Shown: one piece after another, positions 3,720-32,263 of the stretch
Numbering within the stretch: the first letter of the stretch is position 1
How the letters are laid out: each line of letters opens with the position of its first letter
Assembly (NCBI GenBank): GCA_943354045.1
Contig: CALRBF010000001.1
Coordinates: forward strand, 4,046-68,045
Direction: 5' to 3'
Length of the DNA: 64,000 nucleotides
DNA from: Parcubacteria group bacterium
GTDB taxonomy: Bacteria; Patescibacteriota; Minisyncoccia; SW-4-49-11
The notes under the pieces: model-generated
What the model was told of the DNA's origin: nothing
What the model saw: only the letters and a program-made list of their open reading frames with translations
Database searches by the model: none
Program-made: the position numbers and the translations under genes

Positions 3720-5621
3720 TTATCTCCGAAACTTGATTGATCTTCCTTGTGGTATATTATTTTTTGTAGGTTCTTTAGGTACCATGAGATTTGACTTTAC
3801 TTCAGATAATAATTCATCTAAAAGTCCATCTACACTTAATTTTTCTTCTTGGCTTGAGACATGTAAATCTTTTAGGAATTTTTCTTTAATTAAATATTCT
3901 GATTCTCCATAAGCGGAAGTCGATCTACTGAATACCTCTTTTAATTTTTTTGCCATTATGGGATTTACATATTCGACTGGATCAGAAGGAGGAATATCTT
4001 GCTTCACTTCTGGAATAACTTCTTTTTTTTTCTCCTCTACTTGTGTGGCAGTATCAGCAAGTTGGGTGGATATAGGAGGAATAATCTCCTCCTTAGGGAT
4101 AGGATGATTTTCTATTTTCTCATCTATTTTGGGAGTCGTATCTATAGGCTGTAATGGTAGTATAGGAGTGATATCAGTCGCATCTTTAGGTATAGGATTT
4201 TCTTGCTCTGATTTTGGATAAACTATAGGATTAGGTTTATTTGATGCATTATATGACTTTGATTTATCATTATAAGGTCTGGATTTATTATCTCTGTCTG
4301 ATGAGGCTTTTGCTTGGGGCTCTGGAGATTTTTTAATGTCTGTATTCTCAATATGCGCTCCTCTCAGCGAAGATTTAGCATTTCCATATGTTTGACGAGA
4401 GAATTCAATAATTTTATCCCTATTGGATATCAACTCTGGCTCTGGATCAGGAAGTGTATCCGCACTAAAAGGCTGACTGGTAACTCCATCTATCATAAGT
4501 TTCAAATATATTCTCCATTTTGGAAGATTAACTAAATCTTCAATAGTAAGCACTGGAGTAAATTCTCTTTCCATAAATTCAGCATCAGCTGCTCCAATTC
4601 TAAATACAATAGTAGTACCAACATTTCCAAATACTGCACCTCTTACAATTTCAGATAATTGCTCTACATATTGATGGGCCAAAATAAGACTTAATCGATA
4701 TTTGCGAGCTTCTGATAATATTTCTGCAAAAGAATCAGTAGAAAAGTTTTGAAACTCATCGATATAGGCATAAAAATCTTCTCTTTGATTCTCTGGTATA
4801 TCCACACGACTCATAGCAGCTAATTGCATTTTGGTAATCATCATCGCTCCCAGTAATTGAGCTCCACCCTCCCCCACAGCACCCTTAGAAAGATTCATAA
4901 TCAAAATTTTCTTTTGATCCATAATTTCACGCAAATTAAAAGAAGATTTTGCCTGTCCAATAATATTACGTATCAGTGGAGACGATGTAAATTGACCTAC
5001 TTTATTTTGAATTGGTGAAATAGCCTCAACCAATAATTTGTCTGTATATCCATCAAATTCATTTAACCAAAATTGCTTTAATACAGGATCATGCATTTTA
5101 TATACAATATTAGCTCGGAAATTCTTATCTACCAGAATACGCATAATATCAAGCAAAGTACTTTCTTCATTTTCAAGCAAAGTCAATATGGTATTGCGAA
5201 GTATATATTCAAGTCTTGGCCCCCAAGAATCCGCCCAAATTTTCTTAAATACTCCCACCAAACCATCGGATACAATATGCCTTTGATTTTCTGGCACATC
5301 ACCAAGTACATTAAAGGCAATAGGAAATTCTAAATCTTGTGGATTAAAATACACTACATCTTTTATACGATGTTCTGGAATATAATCAAGTAAGGCATCC
5401 GCCACATCTCCATGGGGATCAACAAAAGCAAGTCCTGATCCATTTCTAATATCAGACACCGCCATATTCAATAGAAGAGAGGTTTTACCCATACCTGTTT
5501 TTCCAATAATATGCATATGTCGACGCCTATCATCTCGCTTAATACCAAAAAGTCTTCCCTGACCATGAAAATTAGTCTTAGCAACAATGGTAATATCTTT
5601 ATTTGTTTGATTTTCACTCAT
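3720..5621 (-). CDS. TraD/TraG/VirD4-like (type IV coupling-protein family) P-loop ATPase, with no N-terminal membrane anchor and a C-terminal K/P/E-rich low-complexity tail
   Basis: Walker A 'IIGKTGMGKTS' at residue ~41. Coupling-protein signature 'VDPHGD'. Walker B-like 'YIDEFQNF'. 'LILAHQYVEQL' resembles the TraG-D_C region. The last ~230 aa are a disordered, Pro/Lys-rich tail. Confidence 0.7.
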   Translation of the reverse strand: MSENQTNKDITIVAKTNFHGQGRLFGIKRDDRRRHMHIIGKTGMGKTSLLLNMAVSDIRNGSGLAFVDPHGDVADALLDYIPEHRIKDVVYFNPQDLEFPIAFNVLGDVPENQRHIVSDGLVGVFKKIWADSWGPRLEYILRNTILTLLENEESTLLDIMRILVDKNFRANIVYKMHDPVLKQFWLNEFDGYTDKLLVEAISPIQNKVGQFTSSPLIRNIIGQAKSSFNLREIMDQKKILIMNLSKGAVGEGGAQLLGAMMITKMQLAAMSRVDIPENQREDFYAYIDEFQNFSTDSFAEILSEARKYRLSLILAHQYVEQLSEIVRGAVFGNVGTTIVFRIGAADAEFMEREFTPVLTIEDLVNLPKWRIYLKLMIDGVTSQPFSADTLPDPEPELISNRDKIIEFSRQTYGNAKSSLRGAHIENTDIKKSPEPQAKASSDRDNKSRPYNDKSKSYNASNKPNPIVYPKSEQENPIPKDATDITPILPLQPIDTTPKIDEKIENHPIPKEEIIPPISTQLADTATQVEEKKKEVIPEVKQDIPPSDPVEYVNPIMAKKLKEVFSRSTSAYGESEYLIKEKFLKDLHVSSQEEKLSVDGLLDELLSEVKSNLMVPKEPTKNNIPQGRSIKFRR

Positions 5622-28496: not shown

Positions 28497-28615
28497 GTCC
28501 TTGCAATGATCTACTTTCCCCACGAGGAGTATCATCGACTCACAGAGGCTTAACTTCTAGGTTCGGAATGTAACTAGGTGTACCCCTCTGTGATAAATCA
28601 CAAGGACATTTTTGT
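28497..28615 (-). rRNA. rrf: 5S ribosomal RNA
   Basis: The reverse complement aligns to bacterial 5S ('...CCCCAC..CATCG...ACTTCTAGGTTCGGAATG..ACTAGGTG..ACC...'). It is ~105 nt downstream of the 23S 3' end. Confidence 0.7.
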
Positions 28616-28836
28616 TCTCGAACATAAGATTATCTAAAAAAGATAATCTTATGCTCCAGAATTGTTGTAAATTTAGGTAAAGCAACACTACATAACCTTG
28701 AGTATCAATCAAAAGTTAAAAAGATGAGTTTTAGCGACATTAGTATCACTCGACTGAACACATTACTATGCTTACATCTGTGACCTATCAACGTGGTAGT
28801 CTTCCACGGTCGCATGAGCTACCTAATCTTGAGTAC

Positions 28837-28869
<33 letters not shown>

Positions 28870-29056
28870 AGACCAAACTTAGCTACCCAACAGTGCCATT
28901 GGTATGACAGCTGGTACACCAGAGGTTTGTTCATCCCGGTCCTCTCGTACTAGGGACAAATTCTCTCAAGTAGCAACGCCTACAGAAGATAGAGACCAAC
29001 CTGTCTCACGACGGTTTGAACCCAGCTCGCGTGCCCCTTTAATTGGCGAACAGCCA

Positions 29057-29087
<31 letters not shown>

Positions 29088-30045
29088 GGACGAGCCGACA
29101 TCGAGGTGCCGAACCTGGCCGTCGCTATGGACGCTTGGGCCAGACTAGCCTGTTATCCCCGGGGTAACTTTTATCTGCTGATCTTCCACCTTTCTACAAA
29201 GGATGGTCGGTTCACTAAGTTCCACTTTCGTGACTCAACTAAAGTACCCATTTCTAAAAGAAACACATACAATAGAGGTGTAATGAAAACCATTACAGCG
29301 CGACATACACGTCTTGCAGTAAAGCTAGCTTATGCCTTTGCACTATCTCCCGAATTTCCATATCGGGATAGCTAACCTTATAAACACCTCCGTTACTTTT
29401 TAGGAGGTGAGCGCCCCACTCAAACTACCCACCAGGCACTGTCTCTCATAGTATTAGTATGAGGTTAGTATTCTCATAAATCAAGGGTGGTATCTCACTG
29501 GCGACTCCTTCTTGTCTAGCGACAAGCTATCAAAGTCTCCCACCTATTCTGAACAAAATAAACAAAAATACAATACCAAGCTATAGTAAAGCTCCACGGG
29601 GTCTTCTCGTCTTTCTGTAGGTAAACGGCATCTTTACCGTTATTGCAATTTCACCGGGCAGTTGGTTGAGACAGTTTCCCAGTCGTTACTCCATTCAAGC
29701 GGGTCTGAATTTACCAGACAAGGAATTTCGCTACCTTAGGACGATTATAGTTATCGCCGACGTTCACTGGCGCTTCGGACAGTCAGCTTTCACTGCCATC
29801 GTTAACGTTCCAGCACTGGTCAGGAGTCACCCCCTATACTTCCTTCTTGTGAAGTTAGCAGAGAGCTGTGTTTTTGATAAACAGTCGCTGGGAATCTTTA
29901 GCTGCGGCCTATATTGCTATAGGCAGACCTTATCCCGAAGTTACGGTCGCTGTTTTGCCGAGTTCCTTAACCAACTTTCACCCGTTCACCTTGGTCTTCT
30001 CGACCTACCCACCTGTGTCGGTTTTCGGTACGGTCGACAATGGAT

Positions 30046-30130
30046 TCCCTCCCTAGTTTTATCTACAATAGACTTTTAGATTTTATAATATAAATATTAT
30101 TGTCTATATCTAAACAAAACTAGGGAGGGA
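30046..30130 (-). repeat. Perfect 15-bp stem with a ~55-nt AT-rich loop, inserted in 23S (expansion segment or IVS-like hairpin)
   Basis: 'tccctccctagtttt'...'aaaactagggaggga'. It replaces the E. coli sequence just 5' of 'CGTACCCCAAACCGACACAGGTGG'. Confidence 0.6.
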
Positions 30131-30624
30131 CATAGTGGCTTTTCTTGTCACCTTGGGTCTCTTATATTGAATTCTCTCGCGAGTCTTCTTTATGCGTTTT
30201 TCGGGCTTTAATGACTCCAAAGATTTGCCTCAGAGTCAGCTCTACAGAAACACATATGCCTCAATCCATTAAGACACATAAAATACCATGATGCGTCCCC
30301 ACATTTACAAGCCATTGCCGGTACAGGAATATTAACCTGTTGTCCATCGGCTACCTCCGTTTCCGAAGTTAACCTTAGGCCCGACTAACCCCCCGATGAT
30401 TATCATTGCGGAGGAATCCTTAGGATTTCGGTGGCTCAGAATTTAACTGAACTTGCGGTTACTTATTCCAACATTCTCACTTCCTTGCGCTCCACCAGCC
30501 CTCACGGGTCCAGCTTCAGTGCACAAGGAACGCTCTCCTACCATTATAATACTAATAAATTAATATATAATCCGTAATTTCGGTACTACACTTGAGCCCC
30601 GTTACATTTTCAGCGCATATTTTC

Positions 30625-30903
30625 CTATCCCTCCTCAGTTCTGGGATCGAGCAAGCTATTTTTAACTCGCTCCATCAACTGATATTTGGCACTCCCATGA
30701 GATTTTAGTCTCTTTTCTCTTATCAATGCATCTTTTTTGATTCGATACACTTCAAAGTATATGAGTGTCCATTGACCTTTATGTTTTTTCGTATACTTAC
30801 TCTGCCTAGAATTATGTTCTTCTAATCTTTTTTTGAGATCTTTAGTACTCCCTATATAGAGAGTATAATCTGTAGAGTTTTGAATAAGATATACTATATA
30901 CAT
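30625..30903 (-). CDS. Small GIY-YIG nuclease (YhbQ/UPF0213-like) encoded inside the 23S rRNA gene, in the same sense as the rRNA
   Basis: 'YIVYLIQNSTDYTLYIGSTKDLKKRLEEHN......KHKGQWTLIYFEVYRIKKDALIREKRLKS' matches the GIY-YIG / YhbQ pattern. The last codons and the stop codon lie within the inverted repeat. Confidence 0.8.
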   Translation of the reverse strand: MYIVYLIQNSTDYTLYIGSTKDLKKRLEEHNSRQSKYTKKHKGQWTLIYFEVYRIKKDALIREKRLKSHGSAKYQLMERVKNSLLDPRTEEG

Positions 30904-30937
30904 ATAGATTCATTATACCAGAACTGAGGAGGGAATA
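30626..30937 (-). mobile_element. Inverted-repeat-bounded insertion (IVS-like stem-loop) carrying the GIY-YIG ORF within a 23S helix
   Basis: Left arm 'tatccctcctcagttctgg' (30626-30644) pairs with right arm 'ccagaactgaggagggaata' (30918-30937), giving 19 bp with one bulge. The flanks resume conserved 23S sequence ('GTGCGTAATAGCTCAC' ... 'GCGCTGAAAATGTAACGGGGC'). Confidence 0.5.
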
Positions 30938-31557
30938 GAGTAGTGAGCTATTACGCACTCTTTAAAAGATGGCTGCTTCTAAGCCAACTTCCTACCTGTC
31001 TCAGAAAATACACAACTTTTCCCACTTAGTGTAGTTTAGGGACCTTAATTGACGGTCTGGGCTGTTTCCCTTTTGAACATGGAGCTTAGCCCCCACATTC
31101 TAACTGCTAATCTATAATCTACTGGTATTCGGAGTTTGGTTAGATTGGGTACCCGAAGGCCCCAGATCCATTCAGTGCTCTACCCCCAGTAGGGATCAAT
31201 TAACGCTAGCCTAAGAGCTATTTCGGAGAGAACCAGCTATTACCAAGCTCGATTGGAATTTCTCCTCTATTCACAGCTCATCACCTAGAATTGCACGACT
31301 AGTGTGTTCGGGCCTCCCTTTGATGTTACTCAAAGTTCACCCTGGCCATAAATAGCTCGCCTGGTTTCGGGTCTACTCCCATCAACAATTCGCCCGTTAA
31401 GACTCGATTTCTCTATGCCTCCGTCCTTTTGAGACTTAAGCTGCTGATGAGACGTAACTCGTTGGATCATTCTTCAATAGGCACGCCGTCACCCTTGCGG
31501 GCTCCGACTCCTTGTACGTAAATGGTTTCAGGTCTATTTCATTGTCCTCTCGGACTG

Positions 31558-31594
<37 letters not shown>

Positions 31595-32263
31595 ACATTA
31601 AGTAATATTTAGCCTTACCAGGTTAGTTCTGGTGGATTCAGACAGGGCTTTCTTTTCCCGTCCTACTCAGGAATAGAACCGATATATATACACTGTTTTC
31701 GATTACTCGGCTATCACGATCTATGGCTAAGCTTTCCAGCTTACTCATCTAACAATATATATATATCCTCCTCACGGAATGTTCTACCCTACAACCCCTC
31801 TAGACCGAAGTCTGAGGTTTGGGCTCCTTCCGTTTCGCTCGCCGCTACTAAGGAAATCACATTCGTTTTCTTTTCCTCCGGGTACTGAGATGTTTCACTT
31901 CCCCGAGTTCGCTCCCTAATAACTAGGATACTTGGGCATTACCCCAAGTGGGTTTCCCCATTCGGATATCTCCGGATCAAAGCCTGATTAGCGGCTCCCC
32001 GAAGCTTATCGCAGCTAGTCTACGTCCTTCTTCGCTTCTTAATGTCAAGGCATCCCCCATTTACGCTTACCAACTCATCTTTTTAAATTCTGATTTATAC
32101 TTTTGGTGAAAGTAGTAAAATTGCATTTACCTAAATTTACTTGTGAATGAACCCTCTTATAGAAACAGATGATAATATCTCAAAGGTTGAACTTTAAGAG
32201 GTCATCTCTGTCGCCATATTGCTCCGTAGGTGAGCTGAGTGTGAAGTTGCGAGTACGATATTT

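Follow-up and report, generated by a model that had tools for sequence, protein, structure and literature searches.

How does a complete protein-coding gene come to lie inside a ribosomal RNA gene, between two long complementary arms, and how might the host ribosome accommodate it? The question is raised by a 64,000-nucleotide (nt) stretch of DNA from a Parcubacteria group bacterium (contig CALRBF010000001.1, positions 4,046 to 68,045; hereafter, the window), whose 23S rRNA gene carries a 312-nt insert with a 92-amino-acid (aa) open reading frame (ORF) of the GIY-YIG nuclease family. Our analysis suggests, with a probability of roughly 0.6, that the insert is an intervening sequence (IVS) formed by a portable cassette of about 305 nt, which would be excised from the 23S precursor by RNase III and would spread at the DNA level. 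The cassette is laid out as a C-rich 5′ arm, a short spacer, a GIY-YIG nuclease gene of about 85–92 aa and a complementary 3′ arm whose sequence is shared with the last part of the gene. Stem and ORF have evolved as a single unit, copies of which lie in 23S, 16S and RNase P RNA and behind unrelated protein genes, in every case oriented like the host transcript.

A stem-closed insert in the bulge of 23S helix 42

Alignment to the E. coli rrlH gene identifies GCGUAAUAGCUCAC with E. coli 1091–1104 and places the last host base before the insert at E. coli C1109 (window 30938) and the first one after it at G1112 (window 30625). In the Rfam consensus structure this site consists of three unpaired positions on the 3′ strand of helix 42, between its top and lower segments. 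The placement is supported by a relative with the same insert (locus L011; loci from other genomes are numbered in this way throughout), in which the top segment GGUAG/CUACU has become GGCAG/CUGCU, a compensatory change. The insert lies in the bulge of the helix that carries the GTPase-associated centre (helices 43 and 44), below that centre, and not at one of the classical IVS sites in 23S (helix 9, 25 or 45). An earlier reading made from the sequence only (hereafter, the sequence-only reading) had put it at a helix tip around E. coli 1190–1230, and both the position and the kind of site have to be revised. Two further placements drawn from the Rfam sub-alignment were discarded: helix 45, which the rrlH alignment puts about 50 nt downstream and which carries a small extension only, and a 319-nt gap inside the helix 44 loop, which is an alignment artefact.

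The two arms of the insert, 20 nt each, are 95% complementary and lie 267 nt apart. They form a closing stem of about 20 base pairs (bp), or about two helical turns, composed of 17 contiguous bp plus flanking pairs. The exact 17-mer of the arms occurs at only these two places in the 64 kb, against 0.10 expected, and the region folds at −111.3 kcal/mol (z = −9.6 versus shuffles) with the long stem closing the insert. The layout given by the sequence-only reading, an arm, a 14-nt spacer, a 92-aa GIY-YIG ORF in the rRNA sense and a complementary arm, is recovered by repeat search, Pfam and the sequence itself, with one correction: the 3′ arm spans not the last three codons and the stop but the last five codons, part of a Pro codon and two of the three stop-codon bases. 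The remaining one, the last, also begins the helix 42 strand where it resumes. In the relative L011, whose ORF is only 64% identical at the amino-acid level, the arms are identical to those of the window at 19 of 20 positions and differ by one compensatory change from C–G to U–A.

Covariance models of the group I and group II intron families gave no match at gathering score anywhere in the window, nor any at E ≤ 10 in 30450–31100, a search that had been proposed as the way to expose a hidden intron core. Arms and ORF together account for all but about 25 nt of the insert. The insert is not an intron, and the earlier preference for an IVS architecture over a group I intron stands. It lies inside an rRNA gene, in the sense orientation, as an addition to the conserved secondary structure (Rfam LSU and E. 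coli alignments), and it is closed by a long duplex of terminal inverted repeats and lacks a self-splicing core. We rejected a role of the stem as a terminator because no U-tract follows the 3′ arm and termination within 23S would be lethal. The 3′ arm contains the Shine–Dalgarno-like GAGGAGG and the 5′ arm the anti-Shine–Dalgarno-like CCUCCUC, which may be coincidence; CACCU and AGGUG are present in the arms of many relatives.

Table 1 Features of the window and of related loci. Positions without a locus number are those of the window; MAG, metagenome-assembled genome.
Feature	Position or locus	Strand	Relation and remarks	Basis
Bacterial 23S rRNA gene, complete (host gene)	28720..32080	minus	3361 nt including insertions; model 1–2925	Rfam LSU_rRNA_bacteria, 2322.6 bits
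5S rRNA gene	28498–28605		after 23S	
Helix 42 top 3′ strand, CUACU	30939..30943	minus	E. coli 1104–1108; pairs with 5′-strand GGUAG	E. coli rrlH alignment
Last host base before insert, C30938	30938	minus	E. coli C1109	
Insert, 312 nt	30626..30937	minus	takes the place of E. coli G1110–A1111, helix 42 bulge	
Module core, first C of CCC to last G of GGG	30933–30629	minus	305 nt	
5′ arm, UCCCUCCUCAGUUCUGGUAU	30915..30934	minus		inverted-repeat search, fold, covariation over 38 stems
Extended −10-like motif, TGGTATAAT	30912..30920	minus	ends 8 nt before ATG	sequence
GIY-YIG ORF, 92 aa	30625..30903	minus (rRNA sense)	UPF0213/YhbQ-like, catalytic domain only; stop TAG 30627–30625	
3′ arm, AUCCCAGAACUGAGGAGGGA	30628..30647	minus	overlaps last five ORF codons	repeat search, fold, L011 comparison, covariation
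Resumed lower 3′ strand of helix 42, GGAAAAUAUGCGC	30613..30625	minus	E. coli 1112–1124	
ORF-less hairpin, 83 nt, CCCUCCCUAGUUUUG...AAAACUAGGGAGGG	30047..30129	minus	same 23S, after E. coli ~1585	
Empty helix 63 tip, GCC UAUAGCAAUAU AGGC	29907..29924	minus		
23S copies	L019–L021		E. coli 1105/1186	blastn
23S copies	L024, L027		E. coli ~1704/1770	blastn
23S copies	L036 (Lysobacterales), L050 (Planctomycetota), L053 (Desulfovermiculus)		E. coli 540/553, classical helix 25 IVS site	
23S copies	L038, L084 (Cloacimonadota)		E. coli 270/371	
16S copies	L054, L057		E. coli 68/243; flanks indicate helix 6	
16S copies	L023, L075		E. coli 439/503	
16S copy	L025		E. coli 1069/1156	
RNase P RNA copy	L029 2090–2800 (Balneolaceae MAG)		linker before conserved 3′ segment; ACAGAAUUCGGCUUA and P1 3′ strand follow module	
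RNase P RNA copies	L032 2420–3200, L055 2440–3200 (Patescibacteria MAGs)		at P3, directly before CR-I motif GAGGAAAGUCCG	
Modules with 4-nt direct repeats	L030, L039, L044, L045, L063, L064, L097		all free copies	

The same module at unrelated loci

The unit of stem and ORF recurs in other genomes. The best 80 of 489 confirmed loci from GTDB genomes were placed by blastn against the E. coli rRNAs, which missed one copy assigned to LSU rRNA by Rfam (L014). A repeat with references from the Candidate Phyla Radiation (CPR) left 68 loci rRNA-free, and three of these were later placed in RNase P RNA; ‘free’ below denotes a copy at which no known RNA was recognised. Copies occupy four sites in 23S and three in 16S, in several phyla (Table 1), with the ORF in the rRNA sense in all rRNA-placed copies. 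Two copies with 52–54% identity (L013 and L014) have the same layout in 23S at the tip of a hairpin at E. coli ~1707–1751, which we take to be helix 63. The helix 63 arms of L013 and L024 (TCCCTCACCAATTTTAGG, TCCCTCCCCAGTTTTGAT) are homologous to those of the window, and the L013 pair TCCCTCACCAATTTTAGG/CCTAAAATTGGTGAGGGA is recognisably so with several compensated differences.

In the RNase P RNA of L029 the module replaces a 4-nt CACG linker, and the RNA without its module aligns end to end with E. coli rnpB. We take this linker to be the P2–P4 joining region. Rfam ends the L029 RNase P RNA before the module and misses that of L032 altogether. Among free copies with near-identical arms, the upstream host genes are all different and include those for KsgA, YceG, MurB, T2SS-F, a cytidylyltransferase, a LOG-like protein and a reverse transcriptase. 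In about 15 of 28 cases an upstream ORF points the same way as the module, and the 5′ arm begins −35 to +23 nt from its stop codon.

The sequence-only reading had imagined a compact mobile element of inverted repeat, ORF and inverted repeat that targets the tip of an rRNA helix, and had called for a search of other genomes. That search returns the unit, its arms homologous and covarying, not only elsewhere in 23S and 16S but also in RNase P RNA and at non-RNA loci. The mobile unit is in this respect upheld, and the restriction to tips is not, as junctions, bulges and positions behind protein genes are also used.

Two free loci have unusual surroundings. At L064 the ORF immediately upstream (143–757) encodes a reverse transcriptase (RVT_1, E = 1.1e-17) and shares 35 nt with the 5′ arm; this module may sit within or beside a retroelement. 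At L033 (2440–2820) arm-like sequences occur in reverse order, AAAAGATGCGGG upstream and CCCCGCACCTT downstream of the ORF, and may be remnants of adjacent or rearranged modules. Viral contigs yielded no close relatives, with weak partial motif matches only.

The stem is maintained as an RNA helix

Stems were compared across copies by a strict measure, the length of the longest helix, without gaps and with no more than one mismatch, that the 70 nt preceding the ATG can form with the 90 nt surrounding the stop codon; shuffles served as the control. Stems of 16–27 bp bracket the ORF in all 18 rRNA-embedded copies (z 5.6–19.9), and stems of 14–27 bp do so in about 32 of 60 free copies. In stem-bearing copies 0–19 nt separate the 5′ arm from the ATG, and the 3′ arm lies over the stop codon or beyond it. 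Across the family the arms have a common consensus, (A/T)CCCC(G)CACCT... plus its complement, with CCC...GGG termini (consensus CCCCGCACCT/AGGTGCGGGG) that are conserved behind unrelated genes. Counted from its first C through its last G, the unit is 283–374 nt long, with a median of 304 nt.

Covariation was counted over 16 pairs in 38 distinct stems, anchored at the first CCC. Paired cells make up 97.0% of the total, compared with 58.4% in shuffles and 40–54% with slid partners, a percentage that is partly circular because the stems were chosen by a helix finder. Both sides have changed in 14 of the 16 pairs, a count that the anchored register may inflate, because small indels can then look like double-sided changes. 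The covariation score is 0.908, against 0.184 in shuffles (0 of 500 reach it) and 0.07–0.18 in the slid controls; what is informative in this covariation is how diverse the pair types are at any one position.

The wobble pairs bear on the strand in which the helix is selected. When G·T and A·C are scored symmetrically, the sense strands of 51 distinct stems hold 47 G·U pairs and 18 A·C pairs (binomial p = 2e-4), and the rRNA copies alone hold 12 and 1. A signal acting as a DNA duplex would show no such asymmetry, and the helix therefore appears to be selected in the transcript that has the sense of the ORF. The insertions into RNA genes, of which at least 10 are independent, are strictly in the sense orientation, which agrees with RNA-level selection. 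Together with the pairing patterns, this points to a stem that is selected as RNA.

An intact nuclease gene with its own possible start

Pfam matches residues 1–74 of the ORF to GIY-YIG (PF01541) with E = 5.6e-17 (62.3 bits, against a cut-off of 22.6), and an alignment shows the catalytic residues Y5, Y16, G18, R26, H30 and E63 to be invariant among relatives. The nearest solved structures are those of the UPF0213 proteins BH0048 and EF2693 (1zg2, 1.5e-11, and 1ywl, 7.1e-11), followed by SLX1 (7cq2, 1.3e-7); the catalytic domain of I-TevI (1mk0) is distant, with E = 1.8e-4. Pfam and NCBIfam detect the catalytic domain only and no separate DNA-binding or recognition domain, grpIintron_endo reaching 23.9 bits against a cut-off of 56.

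The ratio of nonsynonymous to synonymous substitution rates (dN/dS) is 0.35 in comparison with L021, whose protein is 92% identical; with L011, dN is 0.28 and dS is saturated. Single-nucleotide differences among near-identical strains are synonymous only. The ORF is intact and under purifying selection, and is probably functional. An identical protein occurs on at least 33 contigs, one member of the cluster being named Candidatus Parcubacteria bacterium, and near-identical loci from GTDB genomes belong to Parcubacteria or Paceibacteria. The wider protein family comprises 3,702 representatives at 50% identity (E ≤ 1e-3), mostly of 82–100 aa.

The ORF has no Shine–Dalgarno sequence before it, which is normal here because a Shine–Dalgarno core (GGAG, GAGG or AGGA at −18 to −4) precedes only 6 of the 37 window ORFs of at least 200 aa; the organism seems to make little use of such sequences. 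In 8 of the 18 RNA-embedded copies (44%), a −10-like hexamer ends 5–8 nt before the ATG, with a mode of 7, and four of these eight hexamers are TG-extended, including that of the window. The corresponding rates are 5.9% per comparable interval inside ORFs, the control, and 11% in free stem-bearing copies. A sigma-70 promoter scan of 30500–31050 found no full −35/−10 promoter. In RNA-embedded copies, the ORF may be expressed from an internal extended −10 element of its own, giving a leaderless mRNA. Motifs of the form TGnTATAAT, or near it, are also present in the equivalent spacers of L013, L014, L021, L023, L024, L032 and L054.

ORF-less hairpins and signs of movement

In a rough neighbour-joining tree, the stem-bearing copies form a coherent part of the protein family, in which free copies with a stem are scattered among embedded ones from different sites. 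The helix 42 clade is sister to a group of helix 63, 16S-1069 and free copies, and the RNase P RNA copy L029 pairs with the 16S copy L075. Exact 4-nt direct repeats abut the CCC...GGG core in 7 of 41 modules (TTGA three times, and TCAA, TTTA, TAAA and TACG once each), compared with a mean of 0.63 and a maximum of 5 in 5,000 sets of permuted flanks and with 0–3 at non-zero offsets. They resemble target-site duplications; none was found at the RNA-embedded copies.

Hairpins with module-like arms and no ORF occur in the same host RNAs. The 83-nt hairpin after E. coli ~1585 in the window's 23S has arms identical to those of the ORF module at 12 of 16 positions, and its loop differs between strains by an indel of 11–13 nt. 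It is absent from the 98.9%-identical 23S of L021, in which an 18-nt hairpin replaces it. At the tip of helix 63, which is short and empty in the window, L001 (about 3970–4036), L006 and L019 carry an ORF-less module-type hairpin of about 68 nt, and L013 and L024 carry an ORF-bearing module at this same site; the termini of the L001-type hairpin (CCCTCTCCAGTTTTG ... AAAACTGGGGAGGG) nearly equal those of the ORF-bearing L024 module. Among 23S genes that are 98.3–99.5% identical to that of the window, these hairpins are present in some and absent from others. RNase P RNA has ORF-less hairpins too: that of L032 has two ORF-less hairpins with module arms, one of them at the linker position that holds the ORF-bearing module in L029, and that of L029 has such a hairpin at P3.

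These traits would also be expected of a transposon acting at the DNA level, with the arms as terminal inverted repeats recognised in duplex, hairpin or cruciform DNA, the GIY-YIG protein as a structure-specific transposase or excisase and the RNA stem as a by-product. The inverted CCC...GGG termini are common to copies at unrelated loci and conserved across genomes, the 4-nt direct repeats (7 of 41 modules) are boundary-specific and of varied sequence, and the ORF-less derivatives are strain-polymorphic and resemble miniature inverted-repeat transposable elements (MITEs). The closest characterised relatives of the protein, the SLX1 nucleases, are structure-specific. We nevertheless consider this unlikely as a full account, because an excess of G·U over A·C (47:18; rRNA copies 12:1) is not expected of a DNA duplex signal and a transposon would not require strict sense orientation in the at least 10 independent insertions into RNA genes. 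The rRNA copies also lack direct repeats, and the encoded protein, in which only the GIY-YIG domain is detected, falls outside the known transposase classes; we know of no transposase class of GIY-YIG fold. Movement of this kind is compatible with an RNase III-excised cassette rather than exclusive of it.

Relative to E. coli, the 23S gene has two more insertions, 46 nt after E. coli 289 (31755–31800, minus strand) and 62 nt after 2368 (29236–29297, minus strand), both of which fold weakly and lack the arm motif of the module. No orphan arms were found in the 64-kb window outside 23S. An extra 155 nt in the 23S of L007 (about 3744–3900) was discarded as a scaffold artefact, as it contains an N-run and a duplicated flank. 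The 23S and 5S genes are adjacent, but Rfam detected no 16S rRNA in the window, which extends about 32 kb upstream and 28 kb downstream of them; the rRNA genes are therefore unlinked here.

Excision, retention or ligation

Under the cassette reading, the host's RNase III, which is specific for double strands, would cut the stem of about 20 bp in the 23S precursor, removing the ORF loop and leaving a short stub on helix 42. The 23S rRNA would then be in two pieces, of about 1.15 and 1.9 kb, which helix 42 and tertiary contacts would keep together and which would not be religated, as in classical IVSs. With an excision signal built into the cassette, its insertion into essential structured RNAs would become tolerable. 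The nuclease would cut DNA and so promote the spread of the cassette, possibly through a 4-nt staggered cut, and it may also mobilise ORF-less derivatives in trans. RNase III excision without ligation is the most likely mechanism for an insert with this anatomy. Its products, a 5′-phosphate and a 3′-OH within the duplex, would leave stubs, and precise exon joining is for that reason not to be expected.

The insert might instead be retained in mature 23S as an extra branch of helix 42, with the ORF read from a separate transcript or left untranslated. CPR rRNAs hold many insertions (PMC11270868). The 23S of the window has small ones after E. coli 289, 1585 and 2368, and the stem would make a tidy three-way junction. 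A 270-nt AT-rich coding loop would, however, hardly fit function beside the base of the L10/L11 stalk or in the P2/P4 linker, and the selection of a long near-perfect duplex at every host site suggests a processing signal, not a structural fit. We regard retention as distinctly improbable.

Slightly less probable still is a domesticated or relic cassette that no longer moves, its ORF having a host function or being young and its stem being kept for removal of the insert. The helix 42 copy is indeed fixed in all sampled relatives, including L021 and L011, and two metagenome scans gave no empty allele. By contrast, solo hairpins with near-identical arms vary between 23S genes that are 98–99.5% identical, copies at different sites are interleaved in the tree, and free copies have direct repeats.

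The least probable reading is a protein-dependent intron, in which the stem is cut and a host RNA ligase rejoins the 23S halves: the helix 42 bulge and the P2/P4 linker are functionally central, so that chain continuity might matter, and a helix-recognising host enzyme with an ORF in the loop parallels the archaeal bulge–helix–bulge rRNA introns, but no bulge–helix–bulge motif is present. All characterised bacterial IVSs, moreover, are unreligated (PMC4990558).

Several points weigh against the excised and mobile cassette itself. Cleavage, fragmentation and the lack of religation are inferred from the anatomy and from the strand asymmetry of the wobble pairs, and strand-biased mutation could contribute to the excess of G·U; the helix finder and the anchored register, as given above, also take something from the covariation. 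A search for RNase III signature motifs covered the 64-kb window only and found none, a result that is uninformative. No IVS is known from the helix 42 bulge, which lies below the GTPase-associated centre, and the reading assumes that a stub and a broken chain can be tolerated at that place. As for mobility, neither of the two metagenome scans gave an empty helix 42 allele, and the rRNA copies lack direct repeats. Polymorphism between filled and empty sites was seen for no elements but the hairpins without an ORF, those of helix 63 and E. coli ~1585. Site-specific homing is not obvious either, because the protein is a bare catalytic domain without a recognisable DNA-binding domain.

More tentatively, the cassette may represent an undescribed family of autonomous mobile elements of about 300 bp that would inhabit operons and essential structured RNAs in many bacterial phyla, and in which a stem-capped GIY-YIG gene would combine RNase III excision, MITE-like derivatives, insertion at 4-nt staggered cuts and leaderless expression. 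We think this possible but, as a whole, somewhat short of probable.

Relation to known systems

The IVS of Coxiella is a close structural precedent, with 428 nt, a 28-bp stem that has one mismatch and a bulge, and an ORF in the loop; it is cut by RNase III (PMC4990558). Like the IVSs of Coxiella burnetii and Leptospira that encode S23p (Pfam 23S_rRNA_IVP), the insert in the window measures a few hundred nt and has a stem in the range of 20–28 bp with a mismatch or bulge, an ORF in the loop in the rRNA sense, no intron core, a sporadic distribution and a suspected mobile origin (PMC4990558). Old and unresolved proposals hold that IVSs are remnants of transposition, or mobile elements whose ORF supplies the mobility (PMC4990558). 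The window insert differs in encoding a GIY-YIG nuclease where S23p is a four-helix bundle, and in lying in the helix 42 bulge where the S23p-type IVSs lie at helix 25 or 45. Its ORF is under purifying selection, whereas that of Coxiella is decaying, and its unit of stem and ORF also occurs outside 23S, in 16S, in RNase P RNA and at non-RNA loci. Excision, on the other hand, is inferred here.

Brown et al. (2015) reportedly were the first to note GIY-YIG ORFs in CPR rRNA insertions. A later survey by Tsurumaki et al. (2024) counted 15 such ORFs for 23S and 15 for 16S, in non-intron insertions only, and 469 CPR 23S insertions are uncharacterised (PMC11270868). The copy in the window belongs to this catalogued type, with a CPR host, a PF01541 ORF in an rRNA insertion, no similarity to group I or II introns and, as a type, several sites (PMC11270868). 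GIY-YIG ORFs in non-intron CPR rRNA insertions are in that sense known, and the window adds a new site. The survey (PMC11270868) makes no mention of stems, hairpins, inverted repeats, RNase P RNA, non-rRNA copies, ORF-less derivatives or hosts outside the CPR. The searchable literature yielded nothing relevant on GIY-YIG in connection with UPF0213, RNase III, inverted repeats or RNase P RNA, and no description was found there of a cassette shared by 23S, 16S, RNase P RNA and ordinary loci in different phyla, of its RNA-selected stem, of solo derivatives or of their strain-level turnover.

Other systems share single traits with the module. Group I introns of the I-TevI type likewise have a GIY-YIG motif and an ORF within an intervening sequence of an essential gene, whereas the window insert has no ribozyme core and its 92-aa protein has neither a linker nor a DNA-binding domain. 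The UPF0213/YhbQ-like proteins and SLX1 give the best structure matches and consist, like the window protein, of a catalytic domain only, in about 90–100 aa; their genes are described as ordinary chromosomal ones, and the searchable literature showed no link between them and flanking stems or insertion into RNA genes. Pairs of insertion sequences (IS elements) and MITEs, and the REP/RAYT pairs of repetitive extragenic palindromes and their associated transposases, also show inverted termini, ORF-less derivatives, presence/absence polymorphism and, at some copies, 4-nt repeats. Unlike them, the module has about 305 nt, far below any IS element, encodes no known transposase and has a repeat selected as an RNA helix. 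In archaeal bulge–helix–bulge rRNA introns with LAGLIDADG ORFs, a host endonuclease recognises a helix, a nuclease ORF lies in the loop and the exons are religated. The module shares with them a homing-type nuclease ORF in the loop of an rRNA intervening sequence and, by description only, differs in the helix motif, in the host enzyme and in the religation that occurs in archaea.

Implications for insertion-rich rRNAs

The origin of bacterial rRNA IVSs has been an open question since 1990, and the cassette suggests how they arise and spread. Because it comprises one small protein and one RNA stem, with defined empty and filled sites, the hypothesis of a mobile element is directly testable. Insertions of this kind are tolerated in the bulge of helix 42 and, in RNase P RNA, in the linker that precedes the conserved 3′ ACAGAA segment, and the cassette may explain part of the unusually insertion-rich rRNAs of the CPR. 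If the proposal is true, MITE-like hairpins could account for many of the short, uncharacterised insertions in CPR rRNAs and for the origin of the classical bacterial IVSs.

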